A stretch of 58,298 nucleotides of DNA from an uncultured Candidatus Saccharibacteria bacterium (GCA_964576685.1 CAZNVC010000004.1:1-58298); one strand, 5' to 3'. Positions 13,281 through 44,278 are shown, counted from the first letter of the stretch. Notes: generated by a model from the sequence alone, not told the origin. Numbers and translations are program-made.

Positions 13281-13387
13281 AATAAAAATACGTATCAATA
13301 TGTTTTCTATAAAGTGTTGCATCTTCTTTGATATATGTATATAGTAGATATACTACTGTCGCACAGTATTTTTACTTATTTATATTT

Positions 13388-28093: not shown

Positions 28094-28250
28094 TTGAGGC
28101 ACAAGGGCTCGTTCACAAAACTTCTCGTTGTAAACTCCTCGAAGCAGATTCCCGACCCGTATTCGAGCCCTTACAAAAGTGACGCAGTTTGCTTGCTGTA
28201 CCCCAAGCTAACACAGCAAAAGAAGTGCGCTTCGCACGCGATAAAAATAA
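28094..28250. repeat. Degenerate copy (B) of the tRNA-Gln-derived repeat unit
   Basis: The segments cacaagggctcg...tcgaagcagattc...cgtattcgag.ccttac...cagtttgcttgctgtaccccaagctaacac align with copies A and C. Confidence 0.7.
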
Positions 28251-28268
28251 GGTCTCGGTCATTACTTT

Positions 28269-28503
28269 GGTATTTTGTTTCGTAACCTTGTTACTCACAA
28301 AACACTCAAAGTTTTGACCTAAAGAAACGTCGACAAAATTATGAAAATGAAAGTCATGGGGACAACTTTCATTTTTATAATTTTGTAGACCGACGTTTCG
28401 CTTCGAGCCCTGCGCAATGAGCATTTAGCTCATTGCTTGTACCCCAGCAAATGTAAAAATACGCTTCATTTGAAGCGTATTTTTACATTTGCTGGGGTAC
28501 AAG
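28269..28503. other. Conserved multi-hairpin element E2 (candidate structured RNA or recombination site), homologous to 58025-58255
   Basis: Shared blocks ggt.tttt.tttc.taac.t.ttact.acaaaacactc, cctaaagaaa.gtcgacaaaa and tagaccgac.tttcgcttcga. Three hairpins lie at equivalent positions. Confidence 0.7.
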
Positions 28504-28647
28504 GGCTCGGTCACAAATCTGCCTCACTTCGTTCGAAGCAGATTCGCTACCCCGTATTCGAGTCCTTACGCAAGCAAAGCAGTTTGCTTGCTGTACCCCA
28601 AGCTAACACGAAGTGTAAGAACGCTTCGCGTGCAATGAGATGTGTTA
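28491..28647. repeat. 157-nt structured repeat unit (copy C) directly abutting the tRNA-Gln 3' end
   Basis: Starts with gctggggtacaagggctcg, a 19-nt exact copy of 28648-28666. Confidence 0.85.
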
Positions 28648-28648
28648 G

Positions 28649-28719
28649 CTGGGGTACAAGGGCTCGAACCTCGATTAACGGTGCCAGAAACCGTTGTCCT
28701 ACCATTAGACGATACCCCA
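28649..28719 (-). tRNA. tRNA-Gln (anticodon CUG), no encoded CCA
   Basis: Hand-folded cloverleaf: acceptor UGGGGUA/UACCCCA, D stem GUCU/GGAC, anticodon stem ACGGU/ACCGU with loop UUCUGGC, T arm CGAGG-UUCGAGC-CCUUG, discriminator G. Close to E. coli tRNA-Gln. Confidence 0.9.
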
Positions 28720-28852
28720 ATCGGATAGCTAGTAGCTTTTAGACTTTAGCCATTAGCTTTTTAATTCACTCAAGTACGTTATCGAATCTTTATTGTCCTT
28801 CGTACTCAGGACCGCTATATTCTACCGCTTCACGTTGTTATACTTTGCTGCT

Positions 28853-28895
28853 GTCCTACCATTAGACCTACCTGCCGTAGGCAGGCGATACCCCA
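28853..28895 (-). pseudogene. Fragment duplicating the 5' ~25 nt of tRNA-Gln, interrupted by an 18-19-nt palindrome
   Basis: gtcctaccattagac + ctacctgccgtaggcagg + cgatacccca, compared with the uninterrupted gtcctaccattagacgatacccca at 28695-28719. Confidence 0.7.
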
Positions 28896-29137
28896 AGATA
28901 CAGCTTGTAGCCGTTAGTCTGTAGCTTTTGCTAAAGTTATAAAAGGCTTCTCTGTGTGAGGAGAATACTAACATATTTATGTACAATTTTCCATCCAATT
29001 ATTTTGCATTGTGGTAATTGATACGACGGTGGCGCTCTTTAGTATCGCTACTCGCTATTGGCTATCAGCTACTGGCTGTCCCATGTGGATTGACTCAGAA
29101 TTTTCAAGGATTTCGTTGGTATACTGAAAGACGTAGT

Positions 29138-31708
29138 ATGGCTAAATTTTCTTTCAAGCGGCCACGCATCATCTCTAAAAAATTTCCTGAGATGGATTCG
29201 ACAATTGATGGCGTCTCAAAGTCTCTCAATGAGCTTGTATTTTCGTATGCAGAAAAGGTAGATAAGACGCTCCAGAAGAAGCATGTCATGATGGCTATGT
29301 CGTCGCTTGTACTGCTTCTTGTGCTTGGAAGTTTCATTTCACCAAAAGGAAAAGCAGAGAGCAGTATCTTTTATCCTGATACTTGTCTTGGTGGTTGGGT
29401 GAACCCACAGTACGCTCAAGGAGAGCAGGAAACGACTTCTAATGGCGATGAGTCCCAGTTTACAAAAAATAACTCCGCCGTACTTCCTAAGAATACCGAT
29501 GCCGAGATGTATTGTGGTAACTTCAAAGGAAAGTTTGACAGTTCTACTCGCCCTACAAAAATAATTGTTTCACTTGCACTCACTAAAGGACCAGATCTTC
29601 TCCTTGAAGACACTCTCGAAAGTGGGCTCGTCGCATCATCATCAGTGACCACAACTGCAACAACGACCGATACGCCACTTATACTTGCATCATCAACTGC
29701 ATCCTCAATACCGGAAGAAGCTTCTGCTACTTCAAGTCAGGAGAGTACTTCTTCACAGGTAGAATTAGCAACTTCAACATCATCTGAAGCGACTTCTACC
29801 GAAACTGCTACACCGATTGTTTCTCCACAGGAGCCACCGTCGGTACTCAATGGAATCATCGAATCTGTAAAGGATACCATCAACACACTTTTTGATTCTA
29901 AGAGTAGTGACACTCCTGGGACTACAGACACGGTGGTTATTCCACCACCAGCACCTGAACCAGCTCCTACACCAGCTTCAGAGTCATCTCCAGTTCAAGA
30001 GCCAGCTCCAGCTCCTGCACCAGAATCAGCACCAACATCGTACCTCCCATTACTCAAGGAAAATATCCTTTCATCGCTTTTCCAAAAAGTCTTCGCACAG
30101 GAAGAGGGGGTATCACCTACACCACCAACTGATCCAGCACCTACTCCTACTCCTCAGGAATCACTATCCCCTGTCATTACAGAACCGGCATCGAGTGAAG
30201 GAACACCACCAAGTGAAACTATACCGACAACAACGTCTAATTCACCACAAGATGGAATCACGGTAGGCACCTCAAGTGAACAAACATCGACTACTGATAG
30301 CGCAACAACTCCTTCATCAGAAACACAAGATACACATAGTACTACTACTATAGAAGAGAATCATATTGATACTCCTCAAGCATCTTCGCTTCTTGAGGCC
30401 CTTACTAACACGATAAGCGCTTCCTCGAGCGATATGTCTGCTACTAGTACCGCAACAACAGCAGATACAACAGCTACTACAACAGAAACAGCAACAGCAA
30501 CAACAACTTCAACTGACGACAACCAATTCCAGAATAACTTTCTCGAAGTACTCTATACGTTCGATGGTGTGACCTGGACATCCCTCGGCGAGCTTAATGA
30601 AATTTCTATGAAATATCGTACGTTTGAAATTCCTGTCACTGCAAGTACTACATGGGATGATATGAGTAAGCTTCAAGTGAAAGTGATCGCCAAGAAGCAT
30701 TCAAGCGACACTCCCACGGTATATCTCGATGCAATCAAAGTAGAAGTGCTTTTCGATACCACACTCCTTCATTCACATCCTGATTTTGCACGAGACACTA
30801 TCTTACAAGATGAGACAGCAGGAGGAATGCGTATTGTGACAATAATCAACAACGAGACTAATCAAGAAGAAATTTGGTATATGTATCTCGATGATGCAAC
30901 GTCTACTGATACAAATGCTTCATCTACAGATGTATCTGCAACTACAACCTCTCAAAGTCCCCAAGCGTCAATTACTTCTCAGCTTAGTGAGGGAACAAGT
31001 ACTGTAGACGGGGCAACTACTACCATTTCGACAAGCACTCCACTGATTAAGCCAGTACTTCCAAAGAACATTTGGATGAAATTTAACGGAAAAAGAAAGG
31101 AAGGTGTTTCTGGAGAAATATTTGCAGAAATCATTAAAAAAACAGACGAAGAGAAAAATAAGAGCGAAGAAGATAAGAAAAAAGAACTCCCTGATTTTAC
31201 ATTAGATGTTATTAGGAGGATTAAGGGAACCTTCTCAAATGTTGTAATCGTACAACTTCAGAAAAATAATAATGAGGCATTATGGGTATATGATATAGAA
31301 AAAAATACAGAAGAAAAAATCGGCGAAGGAACTTCAACTTCCATAGCTTCTAATTCCCCACTTGGAGTGAAGGACGGATATATTTTTTGGTTATCCGCAG
31401 ATAATTCGACAGTGTTTGCATATAATATAGTAACCAAGGATATTAAAGAGCAGCCTGTTCCACTATACGATACTTCAAAAGGTGAAAGGGGGGAGGTGAT
31501 ATTTCTCGACATACCTTGGAAAGTAATCATAAACGGAGATAAATTTTCTTTCTTTAGTGAAGCTACAGGAGAAGTATTTTCTGATGATAACGGTAGTGTT
31601 GCTGAAGCACTCCGCCAGAAACTTAAACTTGATACGGTTCTAGACAAAGAATCGCTCAGTAATCTCAATCTTCAAGTAGAGAGCATGGATGATTCTGTAA
31701 GTAGATAA
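29138..31708 (+). CDS. Membrane-anchored S/T/P-rich surface protein
   Basis: ATG 29138 lies 14 nt after TGGTATACT (29115-29123). One TM (VMMAMSSLVLLLVLGSFI), long Ser/Thr/Pro-rich tracts (PAPEPAPTPASESSPVQEPAPAPAPESAP), and a structured C-terminal region. Confidence 0.65.
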   Translation: MAKFSFKRPRIISKKFPEMDSTIDGVSKSLNELVFSYAEKVDKTLQKKHVMMAMSSLVLLLVLGSFISPKGKAESSIFYPDTCLGGWVNPQYAQGEQETTSNGDESQFTKNNSAVLPKNTDAEMYCGNFKGKFDSSTRPTKIIVSLALTKGPDLLLEDTLESGLVASSSVTTTATTTDTPLILASSTASSIPEEASATSSQESTSSQVELATSTSSEATSTETATPIVSPQEPPSVLNGIIESVKDTINTLFDSKSSDTPGTTDTVVIPPPAPEPAPTPASESSPVQEPAPAPAPESAPTSYLPLLKENILSSLFQKVFAQEEGVSPTPPTDPAPTPTPQESLSPVITEPASSEGTPPSETIPTTTSNSPQDGITVGTSSEQTSTTDSATTPSSETQDTHSTTTIEENHIDTPQASSLLEALTNTISASSSDMSATSTATTADTTATTTETATATTTSTDDNQFQNNFLEVLYTFDGVTWTSLGELNEISMKYRTFEIPVTASTTWDDMSKLQVKVIAKKHSSDTPTVYLDAIKVEVLFDTTLLHSHPDFARDTILQDETAGGMRIVTIINNETNQEEIWYMYLDDATSTDTNASSTDVSATTTSQSPQASITSQLSEGTSTVDGATTTISTSTPLIKPVLPKNIWMKFNGKRKEGVSGEIFAEIIKKTDEEKNKSEEDKKKELPDFTLDVIRRIKGTFSNVVIVQLQKNNNEALWVYDIEKNTEEKIGEGTSTSIASNSPLGVKDGYIFWLSADNSTVFAYNIVTKDIKEQPVPLYDTSKGERGEVIFLDIPWKVIINGDKFSFFSEATGEVFSDDNGSVAEALRQKLKLDTVLDKESLSNLNLQVESMDDSVSR

Positions 31709-31713
31709 TAATT

Positions 31714-32730
31714 ATGAATACTTTTTTAAAAACAAACAATAAAAGTAAAGGGACTCACGGAGCACCGTCTAGCATGATATATAAAGTGCTTAATGGGGTA
31801 ATGGTCTGTGCGCTCCTCTTCACTTATTTTTGGTATATTCCTCACCAAGACAAGCGTGTGGATGTTGTAACAAGAAATCCTTTTCTTAACCCAGCCCTTG
31901 CTGTACTAGATAAAGATAACTTGATTGTTAATTTCCAAGGACTTCGTGATTCGCTCACCTCTACTTACGAAAATCGTGATGATTATCTTGTTTCTATTTA
32001 TTTTGAGTATCTTCCTACCGGCGCCAATATTGCTGTCAACAAAGATGAAAAAATCTGGCCCGCAAGTCTTATTAAGATCCCTGTAGCGATGGCAATTATG
32101 AAAAAGGTACAGGAAAAAAAGTGGAAGCTTTCAAATGAGCTTGTAATTCTTGATCAGGACAAGGATAGTGAATACGGTGCGATGTATAAAGAGCCAACAG
32201 GAACAACCCACACGATTAAAACATTTTTGGAAGAGACGCTCATTAATTCTGATAACACTGCTCATTTCGTTTTGCTCCGCAATTTAGACGGTGATGAGCT
32301 TGAGGATGTGTATATTCACCTTGGTATGGATGACATTATTGACGCTCTTAAGAAATCGCCTACGAAAGAAGCTGAAATTGATAACCGTATTACTGCGAAA
32401 CGATATTCAATTTTCTTTAGGTCGCTCTATAACGCAACATACCTTACCCAAGAGTATTCTCAACTCTTTTTATCTATTTTAGAAAAGGCTCCCCGTGAAT
32501 TATTAAGTAGAGGAATTCCTGATGGGGTTTCATTTGTTCATAAAACAGGAATCCGTATCGATGAAGGTGTGCGAGCTGATTCAGGTATTGTCTATATACC
32601 TGGTCGACCTTACATTCTGACAGTTATGGTACAGCAAAAAAAGAAAGGGAAACTTGATGAGGAGGATATCAATAAAATATTTGAAGCTATTTCGAAAGAA
32701 GTCTATACTTATGTTGCCAATGCTCATTAA
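31714..32730 (+). CDS. Membrane-anchored serine hydrolase with class A beta-lactamase/PBP fold
   Basis: SxxK (ASLIK), SDN (NSDNT) and KTG (HKTG) motifs in canonical order. N-terminal TM. Confidence 0.75.
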   Translation: MNTFLKTNNKSKGTHGAPSSMIYKVLNGVMVCALLFTYFWYIPHQDKRVDVVTRNPFLNPALAVLDKDNLIVNFQGLRDSLTSTYENRDDYLVSIYFEYLPTGANIAVNKDEKIWPASLIKIPVAMAIMKKVQEKKWKLSNELVILDQDKDSEYGAMYKEPTGTTHTIKTFLEETLINSDNTAHFVLLRNLDGDELEDVYIHLGMDDIIDALKKSPTKEAEIDNRITAKRYSIFFRSLYNATYLTQEYSQLFLSILEKAPRELLSRGIPDGVSFVHKTGIRIDEGVRADSGIVYIPGRPYILTVMVQQKKKGKLDEEDINKIFEAISKEVYTYVANAH

Positions 32731-35700
32731 AAAAACATCAATTATTTTTTTGATCATCACTTTATTTTTTTCTGGATTTGATCCTGCTGGTTTCGTATTC
32801 TTGTTTGAAAATATTGCAAAAAATTCCTCTTCAGGAATCGTTGACGCAGTGTATTTAGCAGGAAAGAACAAAAATGTTGTTGATAGTTTTTTTGCAAAAA
32901 AGGATATTGCTCACGCAGCAATCAATACTGCAGAAAAGGAATATGCTATTGATATCGGTCCTGTGAATGGTTCAACGACAGCAAACTACGTATATACTTC
33001 ATTTTTTAACCCGGGAAGTTCTGGCCGCACGGCATATATTAAGCGTATTGCAATTCGTGCTAATACTGCATCCTCTACGGCTTCAAACTACGTTAACCTT
33101 ACTGTTCGTCGTATCACCACAGCATCTGCAGGGACACAAATATCGGCTACGAATTTTCCACAAAAAAATGCAAGCTCATCTAACTCCGTCATGGAAGTAC
33201 GGTATGGTGGGGTGGCAGTAACCTTGTCTGGTACAGTTGATTCGAGAATCATAGGGCAACCGCTTTCGGGTGCTGTTGGGTCATATTATAGTAAGAGAGA
33301 TATTACTTTTGCGAGTGGGGACGAGAAACTGATTCTCCAGCCAGGAGAAGGAATAGCGGTGTATCAAGAAACAGCAGGAACACTTTCAACAAAAGTGCGA
33401 GTACTTATTGAGTGGGATGAAACAGCAACACCCCCCACAGGTGGTGGAGAATTTTTATTTACATTTCCGAGGGTTGAAGTTGCCGCAACATCAAGTTCTG
33501 TGTATAACTCATTCTTTAATCCTTCCGGTTCAGGGAAGACTGCTGTAATACGGCGTATTTGGTTTGGCTCGGAAACATGTGATACTACCGCGGTGTATAC
33601 GAATAATCTGGTTCTCAAAAGAACGACAGCCGCCTCGGGAGGGACGGCAATTAGTGCTTCAAATATTCCAAAGAAAAATACAAGTAGTAGCAATAGTGCT
33701 ATGGAGTTTAGACACACTAATGTCACCGTCTCAACTGTTGGAGGGACGGACGCACGCATCGGACATGTTACTCCATGTGGGACCACTGCTCAAGCTCATG
33801 GTTGGCAGGAAATAAATTTTGATCAAAATGATGAAGAGTTGATTCTTCAGCAAGGTGAGGGTATAGCATTAATCTCAGAAGGAACCGGGGATGTGGATCA
33901 GCTTGTACGCATGATTATTGAATGGGACGAGGTTTCTTCCGCAAGCACTCCATCATCACAAGGGGAGTACATTTGGGCTTCTGATAAAGTCGCCTCATCT
34001 ACGCTTGCAAACACTACATTGTATTCTTTCTTTAACCCTACAGGTTCAGGGAAAACTGCAGTGATTAAACGTTTAGCAATACGCGCAAATGCTACAACGA
34101 CTGCTGCATATACTTCATTTCAATTTCGTCGCATCACTACAGCTTCTGGGGGGACGCTTATCACTGCAACTGATTTACCCAAGAAACATACAGGAACGTC
34201 AGACAGTATCATGGAAGCCAGATGGTGTCTTAGGGGGTGTAATTCAACTATTTCTGCAACGTATGTAGGGACTTCTGATGGGAAGCTGCTCTCTGTTACT
34301 GGTGCAGGTGCGGTAGCCCAAACAATAGGACAGCGTGAGATAGTTTTTGGTGCAAATGAAAAAATTATTTTACAGCCAGGTGAAGGGATAGCTCTCTATA
34401 ATGATGTTCTTACTTCGAGTGCTGCAGAGTCGGTAAAAATTGTTATTGAATGGGGGGAGCAGGCATCAACTCCGACATCGCAAGGAGAATATCTTATGGA
34501 TATTGGTCCAATTAACGGGAGTACTGCAACGACTTATAATTATATTTCATTCTTTAATCCTGCTTCATCTGGGCAAAATGCTGTTTTTAGGAGAATTGGT
34601 ATTCGAGTGGATGCGGTTGCAGCTGCTGTGTATGTGCCAATACAAATACGACGTATCACCTCTTCTTCCGGTGGTACCGTGATCGCCTCCTCTACATATC
34701 CCAAGAAACACACAGGAACAGCTACAAGTAGCATGGAAATACGTACTACTGGGGTGACTGTAGTGTATGCAGGAGCTACAACTTCGGCAATGTTGGGTAT
34801 ACAAACACCAGGAGCAGTTGCTTCTGCTGCCGCAGGGAATACAGGATATAAGGAAATCGAATTTAACGACAGTGAACCCCTCGTCCTTAAACCAGGCGAA
34901 GGGATTGTTCTCTATCAAACACCAACAGCGGGTGATGCAGATTTTCGTGTTCGATTACTAGTCGAGTGGGCAGAACAATCCACAGCACCTACCGCTCTTG
35001 GTGAATTTCTTATGATGATTGGACCAGTAAACCAGTCATTGACTGCGGGATATGTGTATGCGACATTATTTAATCCGCTTACTTCAGCAAAGAATTTTAT
35101 TTTGAGGCGTATTGGAATGCAGGTTGATAGAAGTGGTGCGGCAACTAATCCGGCGTATATCCCTGTCGCAATCAGACGTATTATTACAGCTTCAGGAGGA
35201 ACACTAGTTGCTACAACAAGTGTGCTCAAGAATACAGGCTCTTCTTCATCGACCGCAGAAGTTCGTTCTACAGGGGTCACAGCCACAATGGTGGGAGCTA
35301 CAGAATCTCGTCTTGTTGCTGGGACAATGCCTGGGGCAGTGAATCAAATATTTGGTGACAGTGAAAGTGAAATTACCTCAGGTGATGAGCTTGTGCTTGC
35401 GCCTGGGCAAGGTGTTGCTCTTTATCAAGAGCAGGCAACTGGTGATGCCAATGTTCGATATCGTTTTGCGGTCGAGTGGGCTGAAACAAGCACCTCCTCG
35501 CAAGCCCAATCACTTACCTTCTCCGTTTCTACTTCAACTATTTATTTTGGGGTTGTTTCTCCGGTGCTCGCTCGCTATGCATCGAGTACTAGTACAGGAG
35601 GAAGTGATACAGAAGTGGAAGCACATACCTTTAGTGTTATTACCAATGCTGCAAATGGATATACAGTTACCACTAGAGGGGCAACACTCACCTCCGCGTC

Positions 35701-35992
35701 TGGAACTATTGCAGCAATTGGAGCAGCAAATACAGCTTCAGCGACAGGGACTGAACAATTTGGTATTCGTATAACAGCAAGTGGTGGATCTGGAACAACT
35801 ACGACCCCGTACGCAGAAAGTGGTTTTGCATTTGCTGCGACAGCGACAACCTCTTCTCAGGTGGCAAGTGCCTCTGTTGGAGATAATGCTACAACAACGT
35901 TCTCAGTTCGTTATATTGCAAATGTGGCTCCAACTACACCTGCTGCGTCATATTCTACAAATATTATTTTCGTTGCGACTGCAAATTTTTAA
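32711..35992 (+). CDS. Giant exported protein: five ~172-aa tandem repeats plus a C-terminal WxL-like domain (CscC-like)
   Basis: Signal/TM MLPMLIKKTSIIFLIITLFF. FFNP motif at ORF-track aa 117, 287, 459, 633 and 805. Each repeat ends ..IEW[DGA]E. The C-terminus ends FVATANF. Start 32711 or 32720 overlaps the upstream stop. Confidence 0.75.
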   Translation: MLPMLIKKTSIIFLIITLFFSGFDPAGFVFLFENIAKNSSSGIVDAVYLAGKNKNVVDSFFAKKDIAHAAINTAEKEYAIDIGPVNGSTTANYVYTSFFNPGSSGRTAYIKRIAIRANTASSTASNYVNLTVRRITTASAGTQISATNFPQKNASSSNSVMEVRYGGVAVTLSGTVDSRIIGQPLSGAVGSYYSKRDITFASGDEKLILQPGEGIAVYQETAGTLSTKVRVLIEWDETATPPTGGGEFLFTFPRVEVAATSSSVYNSFFNPSGSGKTAVIRRIWFGSETCDTTAVYTNNLVLKRTTAASGGTAISASNIPKKNTSSSNSAMEFRHTNVTVSTVGGTDARIGHVTPCGTTAQAHGWQEINFDQNDEELILQQGEGIALISEGTGDVDQLVRMIIEWDEVSSASTPSSQGEYIWASDKVASSTLANTTLYSFFNPTGSGKTAVIKRLAIRANATTTAAYTSFQFRRITTASGGTLITATDLPKKHTGTSDSIMEARWCLRGCNSTISATYVGTSDGKLLSVTGAGAVAQTIGQREIVFGANEKIILQPGEGIALYNDVLTSSAAESVKIVIEWGEQASTPTSQGEYLMDIGPINGSTATTYNYISFFNPASSGQNAVFRRIGIRVDAVAAAVYVPIQIRRITSSSGGTVIASSTYPKKHTGTATSSMEIRTTGVTVVYAGATTSAMLGIQTPGAVASAAAGNTGYKEIEFNDSEPLVLKPGEGIVLYQTPTAGDADFRVRLLVEWAEQSTAPTALGEFLMMIGPVNQSLTAGYVYATLFNPLTSAKNFILRRIGMQVDRSGAATNPAYIPVAIRRIITASGGTLVATTSVLKNTGSSSSTAEVRSTGVTATMVGATESRLVAGTMPGAVNQIFGDSESEITSGDELVLAPGQGVALYQEQATGDANVRYRFAVEWAETSTSSQAQSLTFSVSTSTIYFGVVSPVLARYASSTSTGGSDTEVEAHTFSVITNAANGYTVTTRGATLTSASGTIAAIGAANTASATGTEQFGIRITASGGSGTTTTPYAESGFAFAATATTSSQVASASVGDNATTTFSVRYIANVAPTTPAASYSTNIIFVATANF

Positions 35993-36153: not shown

Positions 36154-37242
36154 ATGTCACCTAAAAATTTTATAATCCCTTGCGTCAGTACCATTATTAT
36201 TGGAATCGTTCTTGTTACTCTTATTGGTCAGGCAGAGAAAGTGTATGCGCTAGCACTCACAACACTTTCAGATACTCAATCTTCGCTTAAGGTTAACACG
36301 CTTTCAGATCATACAATTCAGTTTGTAACGCAGTCGGGAATTGGAGCAGGGGAGGGATTTAGCATCACGTTTCCTTTCGGATATTCTTTGGATACTTTTT
36401 CTGTTAATAACTTTGATATGGCAACAAGTACTTCGGCTACTTGTTCTGGTTTTTCTGATGCTCTTCTGGCTTCCGGGGCTGCTTCTGGTCTCACATGGGG
36501 AGTCACACAGGGGACATCTTCTGTGTATTTCACATCAGGTACCGCCACAATTCCAGCCAATCGCTGTATACAAGTAAGAATCGGTTCAAATGCCATCTCA
36601 CAGGCCTCAGGAACAATGGTGATCACAAATCCTGTAGCATCAGGACAAAATGTGATTAGTATTTCGAGTGATCTTGGAGATTCAGGTATTATCACAGAAC
36701 ATATCATTGATAATGACACTGTTTCAATGACGGGGACAATTTCTCAGGCGCTAACTTTTAGTATTTCAACTACCACACTCTACTTTGGTACCCTTAATTC
36801 AGTCGGAGCTAAGTTCGCTTCTTCTACCAACCCTTCAGGAGACACAATAGAAACGGTTGCTCACACGCTTTCTGTTAATACTAACGCACCGTCTGGATTT
36901 ACTATCTCGGTACGAGGTCAGACACTTACCTCACAACAGAATTCAGCCAACACAATTAGTGTAATAGGAGCAACGGCAGCATCTTCAACACCAGGTACGG
37001 AGCAGTTTGGTCTAAGAGCAACTGAATCAGGGGGTATAGGGACGGCAGTAAGTTCCCCGTTTAATTCTGCAACCTCATATGGATATGCTGCAACCGCGAC
37101 AACATCAGAAATCTTAGCAACAGGAAGTGGATCCACCCCAACATCTATTTACTCGCTTAGCTATGTTGTTAACATTGCTGCGGTTACTGAGGCAGGTATT
37201 TATGCTGCTGACCTCGTGTATACTGCTACTGCTAACTTCTAA
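36154..37242 (+). CDS. Exported two-domain surface protein, paralog 1 (WxL-like C-terminal domain, CscB-like)
   Basis: Signal peptide ending VYA. Mature N-terminus LALTTLSDTQSSL. C-terminal domain from 36745 with LYFGTL, SGFTIS and the end YTATANF. Confidence 0.75.
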   Translation: MSPKNFIIPCVSTIIIGIVLVTLIGQAEKVYALALTTLSDTQSSLKVNTLSDHTIQFVTQSGIGAGEGFSITFPFGYSLDTFSVNNFDMATSTSATCSGFSDALLASGAASGLTWGVTQGTSSVYFTSGTATIPANRCIQVRIGSNAISQASGTMVITNPVASGQNVISISSDLGDSGIITEHIIDNDTVSMTGTISQALTFSISTTTLYFGTLNSVGAKFASSTNPSGDTIETVAHTLSVNTNAPSGFTISVRGQTLTSQQNSANTISVIGATAASSTPGTEQFGLRATESGGIGTAVSSPFNSATSYGYAATATTSEILATGSGSTPTSIYSLSYVVNIAAVTEAGIYAADLVYTATANF

Positions 37243-37361
37243 ATATAAGTACAATTTTTTGATTTCAAGTATTATCCACTTCAAAAAGTCTTAATTATCA
37301 TGCTACAATGATGAAAACGTACAACAAGCGAATGTTTTTTGCTTGAGTTGTACAGTAAGCT

Positions 37362-38462
37362 ATGTCACCTAAACAACTTCTCATTCCCGTTATAAATTAT
37401 CTTATCATCGGGGTAGTAATCATCACGAGTGTGGTTCAGGTAAAAATTGCCTACGCAGCTGCCCTTACTACACTCTCCGATACCCAGTCAACGCTTACTG
37501 CCGGAGCCCTCTCGGACCACACTATTCAGTTCGTCACCCCAACTGGTATCGCTGCAGGACAAGGAATAGCAATTACATTCCCTGCATATCCAACAGGATA
37601 CGCTACAGGAACGTTCGCTATTGCTAACTTCGACTTCGCTACCAGTACCTCAGCTACTTGTTCTGGTTTCACAGACGCTCTACTTGCTGCTGGTGCAGCT
37701 TCCGGACTCACATGGGGCGTCACACAAGGTGCATCTTCCACAATTTACATCACTTCTGGTACTGCAGTAGTTCCTGCTAACCGTTGTGTGCAGATTAGAA
37801 TCGGTTCTAACGCTATTTCTCAAGCTTCAGGAACTGCACAGATAACTAACCCAACCTCAGCTACTACTACCGCGATTAATATTACAAGTTCGTTCGGAGA
37901 TAATGGTTCTATTATGCAGAATATTATTACTAGTGACACTGTTTCTGTGAGTGCGACTGTCCAACAGTCAATTTCTTTCGTTATTTCAACTACCACCATC
38001 TATTTCGGTGCCCTCTCTTCAACAGGTCCTAAATTTGCTTCTTCTACCAACTCTTTAGGTGATGCTGCAGAAACCATTGCTCACACCTTACAAGTCACCA
38101 CCAACGCTCCTTCTGGCTACACTATCTCTATACGTGGTCAGACTCTCACTTCACAACAGAACTCCGCTAACACTATTACTGCAATCGGTGCTTCGGTTGC
38201 CTCTTCTTCACTTGGTACAGAACAGTTCGGTATACGTGCTACTTCTACCGGTGGGACAGGGGCGACAATAGATACAACATTTGGGGCCCTTACTTCGTAT
38301 GGGTATGATGCCACAGCGACCACGTCAGCTACGTTTGCTACCGGAAGTGGTGCAACGAACCAAACCACTTTTGGTCTTCGTTATGTTGCAAACATCGCAG
38401 GAACAACAGAGGCAGGTACATATGTTGCGAGTATTGTCTACGTTGCTACAGCGAATTATTAG
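37362..38462 (+). CDS. Exported two-domain surface protein, paralog 2
   Basis: Signal peptide ending AYA. Mature N-terminus AALTTLSDTQSTL. C-terminal domain from 37965 with IYFGAL, SGYTIS and the end YVATANY. Confidence 0.75.
   Translation: MSPKQLLIPVINYLIIGVVIITSVVQVKIAYAAALTTLSDTQSTLTAGALSDHTIQFVTPTGIAAGQGIAITFPAYPTGYATGTFAIANFDFATSTSATCSGFTDALLAAGAASGLTWGVTQGASSTIYITSGTAVVPANRCVQIRIGSNAISQASGTAQITNPTSATTTAINITSSFGDNGSIMQNIITSDTVSVSATVQQSISFVISTTTIYFGALSSTGPKFASSTNSLGDAAETIAHTLQVTTNAPSGYTISIRGQTLTSQQNSANTITAIGASVASSSLGTEQFGIRATSTGGTGATIDTTFGALTSYGYDATATTSATFATGSGATNQTTFGLRYVANIAGTTEAGTYVASIVYVATANY
37501..37861 (+). repeat. 361-bp block 100% identical to 38711-39071
   Basis: Base-for-base identity by eye across the printed lines. 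The flanks diverge on both sides. Confidence 0.95.
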
Positions 38463-38571
38463 CGGAATTCCTTACAATTACACCTTATCCACACTATTTT
38501 GATTATAAAAGTGGTAAACTTACCATCGTAAGATGTAGAAATCTTCAGTTTATTAGTAAAATATACATTTT

Positions 38572-39672
38572 ATGTTTAAAAAGAACCTCTTAACTTCTAT
38601 CACTAGCATTTTTGTTGCTGGTGTTATTTTTTTCGCCTCATTTGCTCAGATTGAACTAGCGTTTGCTGCCGCTCTCACCACGCTCTCTGACACCCAATCA
38701 ACTCTAGCAGCCGGAGCCCTCTCGGACCACACTATTCAGTTCGTCACCCCAACTGGTATCGCTGCAGGACAAGGAATAGCAATTACATTCCCTGCATATC
38801 CAACAGGATACGCTACAGGAACGTTCGCTATTGCTAACTTCGACTTCGCTACCAGTACCTCAGCTACTTGTTCTGGTTTCACAGACGCTCTACTTGCTGC
38901 TGGTGCAGCTTCCGGACTCACATGGGGCGTCACACAAGGTGCATCTTCCACAATTTACATCACTTCTGGTACTGCAGTAGTTCCTGCTAACCGTTGTGTG
39001 CAGATTAGAATCGGTTCTAACGCTATTTCTCAAGCTTCAGGAACTGCACAGATAACTAACCCAACCTCAGCAACAAGTACCTCAATCACCATTACCAGTT
39101 CGTTTGGAGATAGTGGTTCGATTACAGAGAACATTATTACCAATGATACTGTGGCGATGACAGGACAAGTTAATCAATCAATATCTTTCTCGATTTCTAC
39201 AACAACCATCTATTTCGGAACCCTCAGTTCTACTGGTGCTAAATACGCATCATCAACAAACATTTCTGGCGACAGTACAGAGACCGTTGCTCACACTGTT
39301 ACCGTGAACACAAACGCACCTTCCGGTTTCACTGTTTCTGTCCGTGGCGCAACCCTTACCTCACAGCAGAACTCCGCTAACACCATTACTCAAATCGGTG
39401 CGACCGCTGCTTCTTCCACTACTGGTACAGAACAGTTCGGTATTCGAGCAACAGAAACAGGAGGAACTGGTACATCGATTTCAGATCCATTTAAATGGAC
39501 TACATCATACGGATACCAAGCAACTGCAACAACATCAGCAGTACTTGAGACAGGAAGTGGGTCGACATCCAACTCAACAACTTCTATTCGTTACCTTGCT
39601 AACATTGCATCAATTACTGAAGCGGGTACCTATGCTGCAAGTCTCACATACGTTGCAACTGCTAACTTCTAA
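38572..39672 (+). CDS. Exported two-domain surface protein, paralog 3
   Basis: Signal peptide ending AFA. Mature N-terminus AALTTLSDTQSTL. C-terminal domain from 39175 with IYFGTL, SGFTVS and the end YVATANF. Confidence 0.75.
   Translation: MFKKNLLTSITSIFVAGVIFFASFAQIELAFAAALTTLSDTQSTLAAGALSDHTIQFVTPTGIAAGQGIAITFPAYPTGYATGTFAIANFDFATSTSATCSGFTDALLAAGAASGLTWGVTQGASSTIYITSGTAVVPANRCVQIRIGSNAISQASGTAQITNPTSATSTSITITSSFGDSGSITENIITNDTVAMTGQVNQSISFSISTTTIYFGTLSSTGAKYASSTNISGDSTETVAHTVTVNTNAPSGFTVSVRGATLTSQQNSANTITQIGATAASSTTGTEQFGIRATETGGTGTSISDPFKWTTSYGYQATATTSAVLETGSGSTSNSTTSIRYLANIASITEAGTYAASLTYVATANF
38711..39071 (+). repeat. 361-bp block 100% identical to 37501-37861
   Basis: See the partner feature. 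Confidence 0.95.
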
Positions 39673-39712: not shown

Positions 39713-40696
39713 ATGACACCACAACATATTCTTAAAAAGACCCTTAGGACAATTACTCTAGCTGGACTTGCATTTACTGTACTTAGCGCTCAGGCTATTA
39801 CCGTATCACCTGCACGTGATGAAGTCACCGCAGACCCAGGGGAGACCATCACTAGTTCTTTCACGGTAATTAACGAACAAGGTACTGATCAGACGTTTTA
39901 TACCTCTGTAGAAAACTTTGAATCCCAAGGAGAAAGTGGAACACCTAACTTTACTGATTCAAAGGAGGGTCTCCCTTCATGGGTTAAGGTTGAAGAGAAG
40001 ATAGTCCTTAAAAAAGGTGAGCGAGTAAAGATTCCTTATACCGTTGTAGTTCCAAAGGATGCTGATGCTGGAGGCCACTTCGCCGCTATCTTTCTTTCAA
40101 CTGTACCTCCTTCAACTGGTGATGGTCAGGTTTCTGTTGGAGCAAAGACAGGAATGCTCATCCTCCTTAAAGTAACAGGAGATGTAAAGGAAAACGGTGG
40201 ATTACTTACCTTTGCGCTTAAAGAAGGAAAGAAAGTACTCACCACTACTCCTATTAATTTTGTGTATCGATTCCAGAACAGTGGTAACGACAGAGTTAAG
40301 CCAGAAGGGAAGATTATTATTAAGAATACTTTCGGTATGCAAGTAGGGGAGCCTATTGATGCTAATAATTCAACAGGGAACGTGCTTCCAGGCAGTGTGC
40401 GACGTTTTGAAGTTCGTTATGGAGAGAACGAGGCTCCTGCAGTATCAGCGCCATTCTTTGATCATGTAAAGTACGAGATGGATAACTTTGCACTGGGTAT
40501 GTATACCGCAACACTTGACCTTTCTTTTGGTAACACAGGAAAGGCAACATCCTCTCTCACCTACTTCATGTTCCCATGGCAATTACTTGCTGTTATCCTT
40601 GGTGGACTCATTGTTGTTGTTCTCTTGCTTATTACACTTGTTAAGCACTACAATAAATGGATTATCAAGCAAGCACGAGCAGCAGCAAAGAAATAA
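39713..40696 (+). CDS. DUF916/DUF3324-like (CscA-like) surface protein with C-terminal TM anchor
   Basis: Signal peptide ending AQA. Segments TVSP...PGETITSSFTVINEQ and VVVPKDADAGGHFAAIF match the pattern of WxL-locus DUF916 proteins. C-terminal TM followed by a basic tail (KQARAAAKK). Confidence 0.6.
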   Translation: MTPQHILKKTLRTITLAGLAFTVLSAQAITVSPARDEVTADPGETITSSFTVINEQGTDQTFYTSVENFESQGESGTPNFTDSKEGLPSWVKVEEKIVLKKGERVKIPYTVVVPKDADAGGHFAAIFLSTVPPSTGDGQVSVGAKTGMLILLKVTGDVKENGGLLTFALKEGKKVLTTTPINFVYRFQNSGNDRVKPEGKIIIKNTFGMQVGEPIDANNSTGNVLPGSVRRFEVRYGENEAPAVSAPFFDHVKYEMDNFALGMYTATLDLSFGNTGKATSSLTYFMFPWQLLAVILGGLIVVVLLLITLVKHYNKWIIKQARAAAKK

Positions 40697-41625
40697 CTAT
40701 TGCGAAGTATATCAAGAAGGTTATCTTGGTACTGGTTACCAGCCTTTCTTCCTCGTTGTGTGTGTATGCACAAATAGCTACAAACCCTCTTACTGTTAAT
40801 GTATCTGTTACTGCGGCGGTGCTTGTGAGTCCTGGGGTTCATCCTGACACACTTCCTACACCAGTTCCTGGGCCAATCAATATGGTAGATACGGTTGATG
40901 CGGTTGTTTTCAAAGGGGCAGCATACCCAGGAAGTACCATTTCTGTACTCAAGAACGGGATTGTTATCGCAGAATTACCTGCACGCACAGATGGCACCTT
41001 TGAGATTCATGTTAGAAATATTGCTGCTGGGACCTATAGTTTCGGAGTTCGTGCAGAAGATAAGGATCACGTAACTTCAAAGTTACTTCTCTTCACCGTC
41101 TTTATTTCTTCTGGAATCGCAACTATTGTTGACGGTATTCTTGTTCCACCAACTATCACTTCTGATAAAATAGAAGTAAAAAAAAGAGAACCTATTTCTT
41201 TTTTTGGTAGTGCTGCGCCAGGGACTGAGATACTCCTCTCTTTTCTTTCAGGAGTAGAGTTACTTAAAAAAACCTCCGCGAATGCGAGTGGCACTTGGTC
41301 GTACAATCTTGACACGACATCATTATCCTACGGGGATTATGATGCAAAGGCGCGAGTCGTCACCGCAAGTAGTCTTTCTCTTTATTCTGACCCACTTCCA
41401 TTTCGTATTGGGGATGTTACTCGTATGCGCAGTAAAGCGTCCTCACTTAACGGCTTTAGGAAACGCTGTGATTTAAATGATGATGGTCGTGTGAATTTGC
41501 TTGATTTCAGTATTATGGCTTATTGGTATAAACGTTTAGGGTTTCCTCAGAAGGTCGACCTTAATACCGACAATAGAGTTAACCTTACAGACTTAAGTAT
41601 CCTCGCGTATTGTTGGACAGGATAA
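40657..41625 (+). CDS. Exported Ig-like repeat protein with C-terminal type I dockerin
   Basis: Two Ca-binding repeats, DLNDDGRVNLLDFS and DLNTDNRVNLTDLS (41467-41622). Signal peptide ending VYAQ. The start is uncertain and overlaps the upstream gene. Confidence 0.75.
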   Translation: MDYQASTSSSKEITIAKYIKKVILVLVTSLSSSLCVYAQIATNPLTVNVSVTAAVLVSPGVHPDTLPTPVPGPINMVDTVDAVVFKGAAYPGSTISVLKNGIVIAELPARTDGTFEIHVRNIAAGTYSFGVRAEDKDHVTSKLLLFTVFISSGIATIVDGILVPPTITSDKIEVKKREPISFFGSAAPGTEILLSFLSGVELLKKTSANASGTWSYNLDTTSLSYGDYDAKARVVTASSLSLYSDPLPFRIGDVTRMRSKASSLNGFRKRCDLNDDGRVNLLDFSIMAYWYKRLGFPQKVDLNTDNRVNLTDLSILAYCWTG

Positions 41626-41634
41626 CTACTCACC

Positions 41635-42597
41635 ATGAACTCACTAAACTCTTTTTTTAAAAAAATCATAGTTAGCTTCTTGTGGTGTTATGCGACACTA
41701 TCTTTCGCGTATGCGGCACAAATTACTCTTCAGGCACCAAATAAGGCACTTGCAAACAGACAACCCATTGTTGTGCTTGTGTATCTTGACCCTGAACAAG
41801 ATACCTTGAGTGGTCTCGGTGGAGATTTTTCATTTCAATCAGATATGTTCACCGTTAGTGATATAAGTACCGAGAACAGTGTCGTGTCACTTTGGGTGAA
41901 ACAACCAGGGCAATCTGAAGAAAAATATCTCGATAATCGTACTCATGTCACTTTTGAAGGGATTTTCCCAGGCGGGTATGATGGTGTCCGTAGTCCATAT
42001 TATCAAGGAAAGAGACCAGGAATTTTATTTTCAGTGACGCTTATTCCAAAAAACAAAGGAGCGGGGACACTTCTTATTGATGATATTACGCTTAATCGAT
42101 TTAATAGCAGTGCGACACCTATTCCGACTACAAATGTTATACATTCAATCGTTGTTCCCGAACTTCTTCCTGTTGCATCACCACAGACAGGTGCGATGAT
42201 AAGAGTTAAAAGCCCTACACTCACAGCATTTGTTACCCGTACACCACTGGTGGATAATAATGCATGGTATCTTGTGGTCAACGAACGAGAAGGGAAAAGT
42301 GCGATACAAGAAATACTTGTTGCAGAAACAGATGATTATAATGGGGAATTGGTGGATGAAAATAAATGGCATACGGCAAAAAATCCTTACATACTCTTTT
42401 ATCAAGATCGATCAAAGTTCATTCATGTAAAGATTATCTACAGTAATTCTACGTATACCACGTTTACTCTTCTTCCTGTTGAAAACTCTACAAGTATTTT
42501 AACTATCTCACGTATACTAGTAGGTATAGTCATAGTACTCTCTTTGATGTACTTTTATGTTAAATCCTTTTTCATTTCTCTTAAGAAACAGCAGTAG
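41635..42597 (+). CDS. Cohesin-like domain protein with C-terminal TM anchor
   Basis: Signal peptide ending AYA. Cohesin-like beta-sandwich pattern (IVVLVYLDPEQDTLSGLGGDFSFQSDMFTV...). C-terminal TM ILVGIVIVLSLMYFYV. Confidence 0.6.
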   Translation: MNSLNSFFKKIIVSFLWCYATLSFAYAAQITLQAPNKALANRQPIVVLVYLDPEQDTLSGLGGDFSFQSDMFTVSDISTENSVVSLWVKQPGQSEEKYLDNRTHVTFEGIFPGGYDGVRSPYYQGKRPGILFSVTLIPKNKGAGTLLIDDITLNRFNSSATPIPTTNVIHSIVVPELLPVASPQTGAMIRVKSPTLTAFVTRTPLVDNNAWYLVVNEREGKSAIQEILVAETDDYNGELVDENKWHTAKNPYILFYQDRSKFIHVKIIYSNSTYTTFTLLPVENSTSILTISRILVGIVIVLSLMYFYVKSFFISLKKQQ

Positions 42598-44278
42598 GCT
42601 TTCTCTTCATTTACTTTTAGGAGTATTTTTCATTCTTGGAAATGCGATAAACGTGTATGCAGCTAATCTCGTCATCTCTCCATCATCTGTCAGCACAAAA
42701 GTTGGGAAAACTTTTTCGGTTGATGTGGTTGTAAATAATAATATTGGGGCAATTAACGCTGTTTCGTCATTGATTTCATTCCCAAAGGATGCACTCCAGG
42801 TAGTTTCACTTTCCAAGAAGGACTCTTTTATTAATCTTTGGGCTGAAGAACCTGCATTTTCTAACGAGAAGGGGACAGTGACGCTTGAAGGGGTAGCGCT
42901 TAATCCAGGTTTTGATAAAGCAACAGGGAAGGTACTCACTATTACGTTTAAAGCGGTGCAAGCAGGAAATGTAAGTGTTTCAGTAACATCAGGACAAGTG
43001 CTCGCTAATGATGGAAACGCAACCGATGTCCTTAAAACAACTGGATCAGCATTTATTTATGTTAATGAAAATGATGCAAAAGCTCCTGAGGTTGCGGTCA
43101 CCACTGTTGTTCCTGTTATTACCTCACCGACACACCCAGACAGTAATCTTTGGTATGGAAGACGTGACGCATCATTTGAATGGAAAGTCCCAGAGGATGT
43201 GACTGCTGTGAGAACTATATATAGTGATAAGGAAACAGATAAGCCAACAAAGGTATATGACCCGCCTGTTGCTAATAGGTCGTTTACTGCTGACGGGGAT
43301 GGTGTGTTCTTTATGTTTGCGCAGTTTAAAAATGCGAGCGGATGGGGAGCGATAGCAAAATATAAATTCCAGATAGACACCGAAGCACCTTCTTCGCTTA
43401 AGGCATCATTCCCAGATAGTAATGTGACCACCAACCAAACTCCTTCTGTACTAGTCCTTGCCGAAGATGCGCTCTCTGGGATAGGAAAGATAACAATGAG
43501 TGTCGACAGTGGTCAACCAATTGAATTTCCTGTCGACCCGTCTAATCTCTATCGTCTTCCAAAACAAACCGCAGGGAATCATACCGTTGTAGTGAGTGCG
43601 GTTGATAACGCAGGAAACGCAAGCACTGTATCACTTGATTATACAATACAGACAATTACCCCTCCGGTGATCACCGAATACACTAAGAAGGTTGATTTTG
43701 ACAATAAATTCAAAATTCTCGGAGCAACATACCCACAGTCAACCGTACAAGTAACACTTACCGATGCAGACGGTAATGTGTTTACATCAGAAACAAAATC
43801 AAATGATTCAGGTGTATTCTCTCTTCTTTGGGACAAGAGCCTTGACTCCGGTGTCTATGAGATGCGAGCGCGTGTCCTTGATGGAAGGGGGTCTGTGAGT
43901 GATTATACAGAGACAAGAGTGGTGGTTGTCGAGAGAATGGTACTAGTGCGTTTTGGTATTTTTGTGATGAACTGGCTCTCAGTTATTCTTATCGTGATAG
44001 TGGCAGCTATCGCAATCTCTGCGACCCTCTGGTACTCCTTCCTTCAATTTTCACGCTTTAGAAGAAAAGTTAAGCGTAAGTTGTCAGAGGTAGAAAATAC
44101 GCTTCGTGTCAATGTGCAAGAACTCCGTAGAGACACCGAAGAATTCCATGATATTTTGGTAAAAGCAGAGCGAAAGCGAGAACTTACCAAGGAAGAGCAA
44201 ATGATACTTAAGAAATTCAAGAAACGACTTGAGATTACAGAAAAAGAAATAGAAGCAAAACTTGAAAAAGCAGTTTAA
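42557..44278 (+). CDS. Cohesin domain protein with Ig-like modules, TM anchor and cytoplasmic coiled-coil tail
   Basis: Cohesin pattern LVISPSSVSTKVGKTFSVDVVVNN..INAVSSLISFPKDALQVVS...GKVLTITFKAVQAGN. TM WLSVILIVIVAAIAISATLWY followed by a Lys/Glu-rich tail. Confidence 0.7.
   Translation: MLNPFSFLLRNSSRLSLHLLLGVFFILGNAINVYAANLVISPSSVSTKVGKTFSVDVVVNNNIGAINAVSSLISFPKDALQVVSLSKKDSFINLWAEEPAFSNEKGTVTLEGVALNPGFDKATGKVLTITFKAVQAGNVSVSVTSGQVLANDGNATDVLKTTGSAFIYVNENDAKAPEVAVTTVVPVITSPTHPDSNLWYGRRDASFEWKVPEDVTAVRTIYSDKETDKPTKVYDPPVANRSFTADGDGVFFMFAQFKNASGWGAIAKYKFQIDTEAPSSLKASFPDSNVTTNQTPSVLVLAEDALSGIGKITMSVDSGQPIEFPVDPSNLYRLPKQTAGNHTVVVSAVDNAGNASTVSLDYTIQTITPPVITEYTKKVDFDNKFKILGATYPQSTVQVTLTDADGNVFTSETKSNDSGVFSLLWDKSLDSGVYEMRARVLDGRGSVSDYTETRVVVVERMVLVRFGIFVMNWLSVILIVIVAAIAISATLWYSFLQFSRFRRKVKRKLSEVENTLRVNVQELRRDTEEFHDILVKAERKRELTKEEQMILKKFKKRLEITEKEIEAKLEKAV

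Follow-up and report, generated by a model that had tools for sequence, protein, structure and literature searches.

The locus considered here raises the question of whether three tandem secreted paralogs are subunits of a surface fibre or passive wall-bound proteins and, if they polymerise, which strand one subunit gives to the next. The genes occupy positions 36154-39672 of a stretch of 58,298 nucleotides assigned to an uncultured Candidatus Saccharibacteria bacterium (GCA_964576685.1, CAZNVC010000004.1:1-58298), the whole of which is referred to here as the window. A first-pass annotation, made from the sequence alone, had tentatively proposed filament subunits that exchange their invariant N-terminal strand, and had likened their shared C-terminal domain (CTD) to WxL domains. 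We regard it as probable that the three paralogs are the major subunits of a Pam-type pilus, a chaperone-assisted donor-strand-exchange fibre of the candidate phyla radiation (CPR, Patescibacteria). The exchanged strand is most likely the linker between the two domains of the subunit, and not its N-terminus. The locus represents a variant, particular to its lineage, of a system that was first reported in 2026; its kind is known, and its anchoring parts and its kinship with WxL clusters are new.

Tandem paralogs with a Pam-type C-terminal domain

The three genes lie on the plus strand at 36154-37242 (paralog 1, 362 aa), 37362-38462 (paralog 2, 366 aa) and 38572-39672 (paralog 3, 366 aa), and identity to paralog 1 is 64% for paralog 2 and 68% for paralog 3. 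Read from the sequence, each product begins with a signal peptide made up of a K-rich n-region, a hydrophobic core and an A-x-A site (VYA↓LALTT, AYA↓AALTT and AFA↓AALTT), which in paralog 1 spans 36154-36249. The predicted mature N-termini are (L/A)ALTTLSDTQS(S/T)L, and in this, as in the number, lengths and signal peptides of the genes, the first-pass annotation agrees with the translated open reading frames (ORFs). Mature paralog 1 consists of an N-terminal domain (NTD, 36250-36708) that opens with the conserved stretch LALTTLSDTQSSLK (36250-36291), an inter-domain linker DNDTVSMTGTISQA (36709-36750, with equivalents at 37929-37970 in paralog 2 and 39139-39180 in paralog 3) and the CTD (36751-37239), all on the plus strand. 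The final ~165 aa of the paralogs align with the C-terminus of a giant protein encoded upstream by a 1112-aa ORF (32654-35992, plus strand), with 47% identity over the CTD, so that the domain said to be common to all four proteins is indeed shared. The four C-terminal ends given for them (LVYTATANF, IVYVATANY, LTYVATANF and IIFVATANF) match the translations exactly. The internal motifs quoted for this domain hold only in part: TEQFG[IL]R is kept in all four proteins, but YFG(T/A)L and TNAPSG[FY]T[IV]S do not extend to the giant protein, which has IYFGVV and TNAANGYTVT in their places. Paralogs 2 and 3 also share a 300-nt stretch of 93% DNA identity (37436-37735 and 38646-38945) that encodes near-identical NTDs; unlike these, their CTDs have diverged, and this looks like a recent duplication or gene conversion limited to the NTD.

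It is through the CTD that the family can be named. All four CTDs lie above the curated cut-off of the NCBIfam model NF058581 (CPR_Pam_pilin_C, "Pam pilus system pilin subunit"), at 62-71 bits against 55 (69.7, 65.9 and 62.5 bits for paralogs 1 to 3, and 71.5 for the giant protein), and the model is matched by 134 of 138 diverse homologues, with a best E of 2e-44. The NTD matched no NCBIfam model, the Pfam scan of the paralogs matched no family, and a PDB sequence search with paralog 1 gave no match. A word-indexed search returned 683 relatives, which among the matches listed are unnamed or "hypothetical", with Parcubacteria/Paceibacterota as the named sources; an exhaustive search returned 811 cluster representatives (50% identity clusters, E<=1e-3). 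Conservation in the family peaks at the N-terminus, at the linker (consensus DDxVxVTATV), at the TNAxxGY and GTEQFG motifs and in the C-terminal strand, and the cysteine pair C97/C138 is nearly invariant. The last residue is F or Y in 411 of 412 distinct CTD-complete homologues, nothing lies beyond the C-terminal end in 411 of the 412, and the general ending is T-[AGS]-[NT]-[FY]. A loose N-terminal motif, A↓x-L-T-x-x-S-D-x-x-S...H-T-I-x-F, occurs in 268 of 313 two-domain homologues, down to ~33% identity. Conservation of the two ends among homologues, which the first-pass annotation had suggested as a check, is therefore borne out, and the shared pattern lies far beyond chance.

Pam pili are donor-strand-exchange fibres of CPR bacteria, known from cryo-electron microscopy (cryo-EM) of two filaments of Ca. 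Mycosynbacter amalyticus (bioRxiv 10.64898/2026.03.03.709456). According to this preprint, the pilins PamA and PamB begin with a sandwich of nine strands, followed by a linker strand and, at the C-terminus, an open immunoglobulin (Ig)-like domain, and in the polymer each linker fills the CTD of the next subunit. PamC and PamD are operon-encoded PapD-like chaperones with a C-terminal transmembrane helix, PamT is a CTD-only tip, and PamR is a terminator, similar to RbmA, that inserts its N-terminal strand into the last pilin (bioRxiv 10.64898/2026.03.03.709456). The likeness of our paralogs to PamA and PamB rests on the NCBIfam model and on this published description; the Pam models in NCBIfam are NF058581, NF058579 and NF058578, of which NF058581 derives from the 2026 preprint.

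A scan of species-representative genomes, with alignment of closer relatives, yielded 74 related loci, nearly all of them from metagenome-assembled genomes labelled as CPR. The labels include Paceibacterota, Parcubacteria, Nomura-, Kaiser-, Falkow-, Magasanik-, Gracili- and Peribacteria, and many read "uncultured Saccharibacteria". Four loci (L025, L040, L051 and L069) carry the full pilus operon under Polynucleobacter or Gammaproteobacteria labels, and these are probably mislabelled or mis-binned CPR sequences; one of them is a contig of 876 kb, a size typical of CPR genomes. The recurrent gene order is a CTD-ending tip (190-2064 aa), which stands directly upstream of the pilins in most related loci, then 1-4 two-domain pilins, a chaperone-like protein (~327 aa), a dockerin protein (~320 aa) and two membrane proteins. 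In the window and in 73 of the 74 related loci the last pilin is immediately followed by the chaperone-like gene, and a member of the dockerin family comes next in the window and 67 related loci, 68 sources in all. Taken with the NF058581 match, the cryo-EM of the Pam pilins and the conserved N- and C-termini, this operon context makes it very probable that the paralogs are filament subunits, as had been proposed.

The locus resembles the Pam system (PamA, PamB, PamE, PamT, PamC, PamD and PamR) in being CPR-restricted, Sec-exported and usher-less, no usher family being found in the Pfam or NCBIfam results for the operon proteins. Further common features are a CTD that passes the curated model, conservation that is greatest in the linker and CTD, a paired cysteine, a PapD-like chaperone or chaperone-like protein with a C-terminal transmembrane helix, a CTD-only tip and, here as a putative counterpart, a terminator with an N-terminal strand. 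The two differ in lineage, the labels here being those of Paceibacterota/Parcubacteria and allied groups, whereas the preprint reports mainly Saccharimonadia and Microgenomatia and makes no mention of WxL, dockerin or Paceibacteria (bioRxiv 10.64898/2026.03.03.709456). There is one chaperone-like gene here and two in Pam, and the tip is a giant repeat protein in place of the 241-aa PamT. The putative terminator carries a dockerin, with two cohesin-family membrane proteins encoded downstream, whereas PamR has a transmembrane helix of its own. The ATP-synthase linkage of Pam was not seen in the window.

The chaperone-like protein and the WxL question

The gene that follows the pilins (39713-40696, plus strand) encodes a membrane-anchored protein of 327 aa with a signal peptide, two Ig-like domains and a transmembrane helix at aa 289-325, as modelled by AlphaFold2 from 79 sequences (predicted local distance difference test, pLDDT, 83). 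The best Foldseek matches of this model are to Enterococcus faecium WxLIP, alone or bound to a long WxL protein (9i25_C, 1.6e-11; 9i1y), followed by RbmA and the CEP192 SPD-2 domains. The chaperones CfaA, CsuC, Caf1M and EcpB were matched at 1e-9 to 2e-7, with CfaA (E ~1e-9) the best of the chaperone-usher chaperones. Profile comparison by hhalign aligned the chaperone-like family with seven plasmid-borne WxLIPs over 125 columns (probability 95.3%, E 2e-8), and sub-threshold Pfam WxLIP_PGBD matches occur in 37 of 63 members. The protein is a WxLIP homologue, a relationship that is not noted in the Pam preprint, and its model suggests a PapD-like fold resembling that of the chaperone-usher chaperones. 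It also contains a donor-like strand, GQVSVGAKTGMLILLKV (40124-40174, plus strand), whose motif GQVSVGAKVG falls in a low-confidence hinge at residues 136-143.

Residues R8 and K112 of PapD bind the C-terminal carboxylate of the pilin. Of 63 members of the chaperone-like family, 61 keep R/K35 (mature position 7) and 62 keep K145, inside the donor-like strand; presumably this pair recalls R8 and K112. A carboxylate clamp formed by R/K35 and K145 would account for the precise ending of the pilins at an aromatic residue.

Whether the WxL parallel extends to the pilin itself is a separate question. The segments G[FY]T[IV] and [YF][VT]A of the CTD do occupy the places that had been proposed for the two WxL motifs, but Trp is absent at both. 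Pfam WxL (PF13731) matched none of the 138 family members at E<=1 and none of the window proteins. A comparison of hidden Markov models, which had been suggested as a check on the parallel, was made with hhalign between 176 Pam CTDs and 22 WxL domains from twelve Firmicutes plasmid loci, in local and global modes with reversed and block-shuffled controls. It gave a probability of 0.7-1.2% and no signal above the shuffled controls (score 18.2 against 15.9 +/- 18.7 for block-shuffled profiles). The 16-17 columns aligned cover the C-terminal strand only, TEAGxYxAxLTYVATA against xxxYxTTLTWxLs, the latter being the second WxL motif, which is the position that the first-pass annotation had assigned to it. 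Likewise, the WxL chain of 9i25 was absent among the 50 Foldseek matches listed for the pilin model. The CTD thus differs from WxL domains in having neither Trp-x-Leu motifs nor a Pfam WxL match nor a significant profile match. Since Pfam gives no match and hhalign does no better than its controls, the CTD cannot be filed as a WxL domain, and by these comparisons it is not detectably one. What stands of the parallel is the identity of the neighbouring gene: because that gene encodes a WxLIP homologue, the WxL analogy holds at the level of the system and not as domain membership.

At this level several features of layout are shared. The WxL/WxLIP (DUF916-DUF3324) clusters of Lactobacillales and Listeria (PMC10599100, PMC9772566; PDB 9i25, 9i1y) encode a WxLIP with the same succession of signal peptide, two Ig-like domains and transmembrane helix, small and large proteins with a ~170-aa shared domain at the extreme C-terminus, and a short anchoring protein. 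They are unlike the present locus in that anchoring is by LPXTG with sortase and not by a dockerin, and in that WxL proteins are held to be peptidoglycan-bound and not fibres. A disordered loop strand of WxLIP, which ends in a C-terminal transmembrane helix, is predicted to complete the WxL sandwich (PMC10599100); by analogy, this completion would be mechanistically the same as the chaperone step proposed here. Small WxL proteins of three Firmicutes loci (L079 4498-6774, L084 5471-7771 and L077 5050-5763) have a short conserved strand after the signal peptide, e.g. NGAITFEA, and a Pro-rich spacer, DPTNPVDPxDP, between this strand and the WxL domain. In layout they recall the dockerin protein, with what looks like an N-terminal donor strand held by a flexible tether.

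The probable exchanged strand and a proposed assembly of the fibre

The AlphaFold2 model of paralog 1, made from 138 sequences and read as secondary structure and pLDDT, is all-beta with two domains (pLDDT 97.6). Its strands run through mature residues 4-153 (ten, one of them very short) and then 168-328, and the linker that lies between (mature 154-167, full-length 186-199) has no strand partner at a pLDDT of >96. A scoring matrix built from linker residues 188-197 was run against every one of the 3867 ORFs in the related loci, with the 99th percentile of background as threshold. Two operon families that are unrelated to each other stood out: above the threshold lay 56% of the dockerin family, directly after the signal peptide (residues 20-50), and 30% of the chaperone-like family, in which the best matches fall at residues 130-150 in 56 of 73 proteins. 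Of the 37 CTD-only proteins encoded upstream, 36 lack the motif. Matrices of most control segments and of the N-terminal motif gave 0-4%, with no enrichment, and two controls reached 10% and 13% in the dockerin family. The linker is favoured as donor because it is unpaired in the model, because its motif recurs in the chaperone-like and dockerin proteins, and because it is missing from the tips. The succession of acceptor-only, donor-plus-acceptor and donor-only proteins, together with a partner that carries a copy of the donor, follows the logic of donor-strand complementation and exchange.

Covariation was calculated from 313 two-domain sequences (effective number ~200), using columns with <10% gaps and summing along strand ladders. 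For the C-terminal strand, linker residues 185-192 give the top ladder (z ~4.2) and outscore the partners within its own domain. In addition, a search of the PDB with the pilin-family profile gave a single weak match (E 0.15), to the donor-strand-complemented CfaE construct 2hb0, and here the linker falls on the fused donor strand of CfaB (DNKQ-VEKNITVTASVDPVI); at this E the alignment is suggestive and not significant.

The invariant mature N-terminal strand, ALTTLSDTQS, had originally been likened to the N-termini of TasA-type fibre subunits; on this reading it would be donated into the neighbour's CTD, in the manner of TasA or of archaeal thread and bundling pili. Its conservation matches that of the CTD motifs down to ~33% identity, it is absent from the CTD-only tip proteins, and its residues covary weakly with the linker and C-terminal strand (L38-Q198, L45-L200 and S44-V355, z 4.8-6.5). 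TasA of Bacillus and the archaeal pili are, moreover, extracellular beta-rich fibres of cells with no outer membrane, with a conserved N-terminus after cleavage. However, the N-terminal strand is already paired in the AlphaFold2 monomer (pLDDT ~96), and the strongest covariation of residues 37-45 is with residues 48-56, an antiparallel hairpin inside the NTD (z 6.9), so that it appears to be the first strand of a complete beta-sandwich. Nor is its motif mimicked by the partners, the matrix showing no enrichment in the chaperone-like and dockerin proteins (1% above background), whereas that of the unpaired linker is; and in the solved Pam pili, of PamA and PamB, the donor is the linker. There is no sequence match to TasA, Pfam Peptidase_M73/TasA having matched none of the 138 family members. 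We therefore consider an N-terminal donor very unlikely, and the part of the first-pass annotation that named this strand is probably wrong.

An arrangement that shares the chaperone-like partner with our proposal would be a non-polymeric complex of WxL type, in which the CTD is permanently completed by the strand of the WxLIP-like protein and single adhesins are tethered. Such an arrangement would suit the WxLIP homologue next to the pilins, the strand completion and C-terminal transmembrane helix described for WxLIP (PMC10599100), and the occurrence in WxL clusters of small and large proteins with a C-terminal shared domain. Against it, the pilins have a conserved donor-like linker of their own and are flanked in fixed order by donor-only and acceptor-only proteins, members of the CTD family form filaments in cryo-EM, the CTD is not detectably WxL, and 1-4 tandem paralogs fit bulk structural subunits; it is improbable on these grounds. 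It is extremely unlikely that the paralogs are passive secreted or wall Ig-like proteins, such as an S-layer-like coat or an enzyme scaffold, that exchange no strand and use the C-terminus as a sorting or anchoring signal. The invariant C-terminal aromatic could serve as a recognition tag, and the dockerin and cohesin genes of the operon recall cellulosome-like scaffolds, but the unpaired conserved linker, its mimicry in two partners, the PapD-like partner and the Pam-pilin match would all be left unexplained.

Several observations weigh against a Pam-type fibre with the linker as donor. The covariation between linker and C-terminal strand is modest for an effective number of ~200 sequences, and there is a rival ladder of linker residues 194-199 with 180-185 (z 5.1). 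The open groove of the CTD and the insertion of a strand into it are what we infer from a model seen as secondary structure only. Foldseek searches of the pilin model, against a copy of the PDB without Pam structures, returned generic two-Ig matches only (integrin, ClfA/SdrG, TTHA1873 and YcnI, with TM-scores of 0.2-0.3), and no chaperone-usher pilin or Pam structure was among them. The chaperone-like family matches no NCBIfam Pam model, and WxLIP, its closest relative, has been described as a wall- or host-binding partner and not as an assembly chaperone (PMC10599100). The two membrane proteins of the window itself are below the Pfam Cohesin threshold. Finally, no filament has been observed in this lineage.

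Reasoning by homology from the family membership, domain architecture, synteny and motif pattern shown above, assembly with a linker donor may be pictured in the following way. The pilin would be exported by Sec and its signal peptide cut at A-x-A. The complete N-terminal beta-sandwich would then fold, with the invariant N-terminal strand in its first hairpin, and the C-terminal Ig-like domain would be left one strand short, ending in the invariant aromatic with its free carboxylate. The WxLIP/PapD-like membrane protein would fill this gap with its own strand, GQVSVGAKVG, and the linker DDxVxVTATV of the next pilin would displace the chaperone strand, so joining the subunits head to tail. The giant protein, having an acceptor CTD with no donor linker, could sit only at the tip; the dockerin protein, having a donor-like strand with no acceptor CTD, could only cap the base, where it would probably be tied to the two membrane-anchored cohesin-family proteins.

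Such a scheme has much in common with the class 5 chaperone-usher fimbriae, e.g. CFA/I (CfaA, CfaB and CfaE), where chaperone complementation is followed by exchange and an acceptor-only, two-domain adhesin forms the tip. The donor strand of CfaB, VEKNITVTASVDP, aligns with the pilin linker, with alternating hydrophobic residues in both, and the chaperone-like protein has conserved basic residues in its first strand and in its donor-like strand, as in the chaperone-usher system. The locus is unlike that system in that there is no usher or outer membrane, the chaperone is membrane-anchored and sequence similarity is below significance; the donor here would be an internal linker (aa 186-199), whereas that of chaperone-usher pilins is an N-terminal extension.

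Putative tip and anchor, and neighbouring genes

The likely real start of the giant ORF is near 32711 (MLPMLIKK). The Pam-type CTD of this putative tip adhesin occupies about 35510-35989 (plus strand) and is not preceded by a donor-linker motif. Against the PamT equivalog model the protein scores 34 bits, below the cut-off of 240, and by this measure it is an analogue of PamT and not an orthologue. The part before the CTD (32654-35500) contains about five tandem ~170-aa repeats with the pattern GEYLxxIGPxNGS...FFNPxxSGKxAxIRRI...PGEGIALYQE...IEWxE, for which no Pfam family was matched, and relatives of this N-terminal part are present in 58 loci.

At the other end of the operon, the putative terminator or anchor subunit (322 aa; 40657-41625, plus strand; Pfam Dockerin_1 4.4e-7, Big_6 1.2e-6) consists of a signal peptide, the donor-like strand NPLTVNVSVTAAV (40771-40827, plus strand), a Pro/Gly-rich spacer, an Ig-like domain and a type I dockerin (41470-41622, plus strand). 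It matches the NCBIfam model of PamR weakly (E 0.013) and has no transmembrane helix, the C-terminal dockerin standing in its stead. The two genes that follow on the same strand are in conserved position and encode membrane-anchored proteins. One, of 320 aa (41635-42597), has a C-terminal transmembrane segment and is a candidate dockerin receptor; the other, of 573 aa (42557-44278; Pfam Big_13 2.3e-9), has Big_13 Ig-like domains, a transmembrane segment and a cytoplasmic coiled-coil tail, and is a candidate receptor or base component. A pooled Pfam scan of both families found Cohesin in 13 of 57 members (best E 2.1e-7), and single-sequence PDB searches of the two window proteins gave no cohesin match. 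We infer that a cohesin-dockerin tie probably holds the fibre to the membrane in place of the transmembrane helix of PamR. No pilus anchor of this type has been described in the Pam system.

Immediately upstream of the tip gene, 29018-32730 encodes a secreted protein of 896 aa that is rich in Ser/Thr/Pro, and a protein of 338 aa from the class-A beta-lactamase family (Pfam Beta-lactamase2, 4.4e-41). The former has the same placement in 38 related loci and the latter in 24, and both may be components of the cluster, e.g. for wall remodelling. A tRNA-Gln (CTG) gene (28648-28719, minus strand) lies just upstream of the cluster, within a stretch of ~900 bp (28103-29017) whose ORFs are all implausible. 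Rfam and tRNA scans found this tRNA-Gln upstream and a partial tRNA match at the end of the window and nothing else, and a promoter and terminator scan of 32-45 kb of the window gave nothing informative beyond shuffled expectation. Other large secreted proteins, of 1169 aa (Big_7 Ig-like repeats and polysaccharide deacetylase) and 695 aa (PKD and GH26), are encoded at 9771-15415 and are further candidates for surface or host interaction.

The distribution of the locus suggests that the Pam fibre is not confined to Saccharimonadia and Microgenomatia. A stereotyped seven-gene operon is present in Paceibacteria-type genomes, with all of its members still annotated as "hypothetical", and such operons may be recognised by a rule at the level of sequence: the donor motif occurs in the pilin linker, the chaperone loop and the N-terminus of the terminator, and is missing from tips. 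Homology with WxLIP also connects this CPR system with the virulence-associated surface-protein clusters of Gram-positive pathogens. A membrane-anchored chaperone is common to both systems. It is conceivable, although we put it forward tentatively and think it rather less than even, that CPR Pam pili and Firmicutes WxL/WxLIP clusters are two branches of one ancient, usher-less system of chaperones and donor-strand exchange for cells with no outer membrane, in which the Paceibacteria-type fibre is held by a cohesin-dockerin joint and not by a transmembrane helix or a sortase. Homology between the Pam CTD and WxL domains, and polymerisation or strand handover by WxL proteins, are the conjectural parts of this proposal; if it were true, the WxL proteins of enterococci, listeriae and lactobacilli might form polymers or pass on strands as well. 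CPR bacteria live attached to other microbes, and a fibre of the kind proposed here bears on how their cells reach and hold their hosts.

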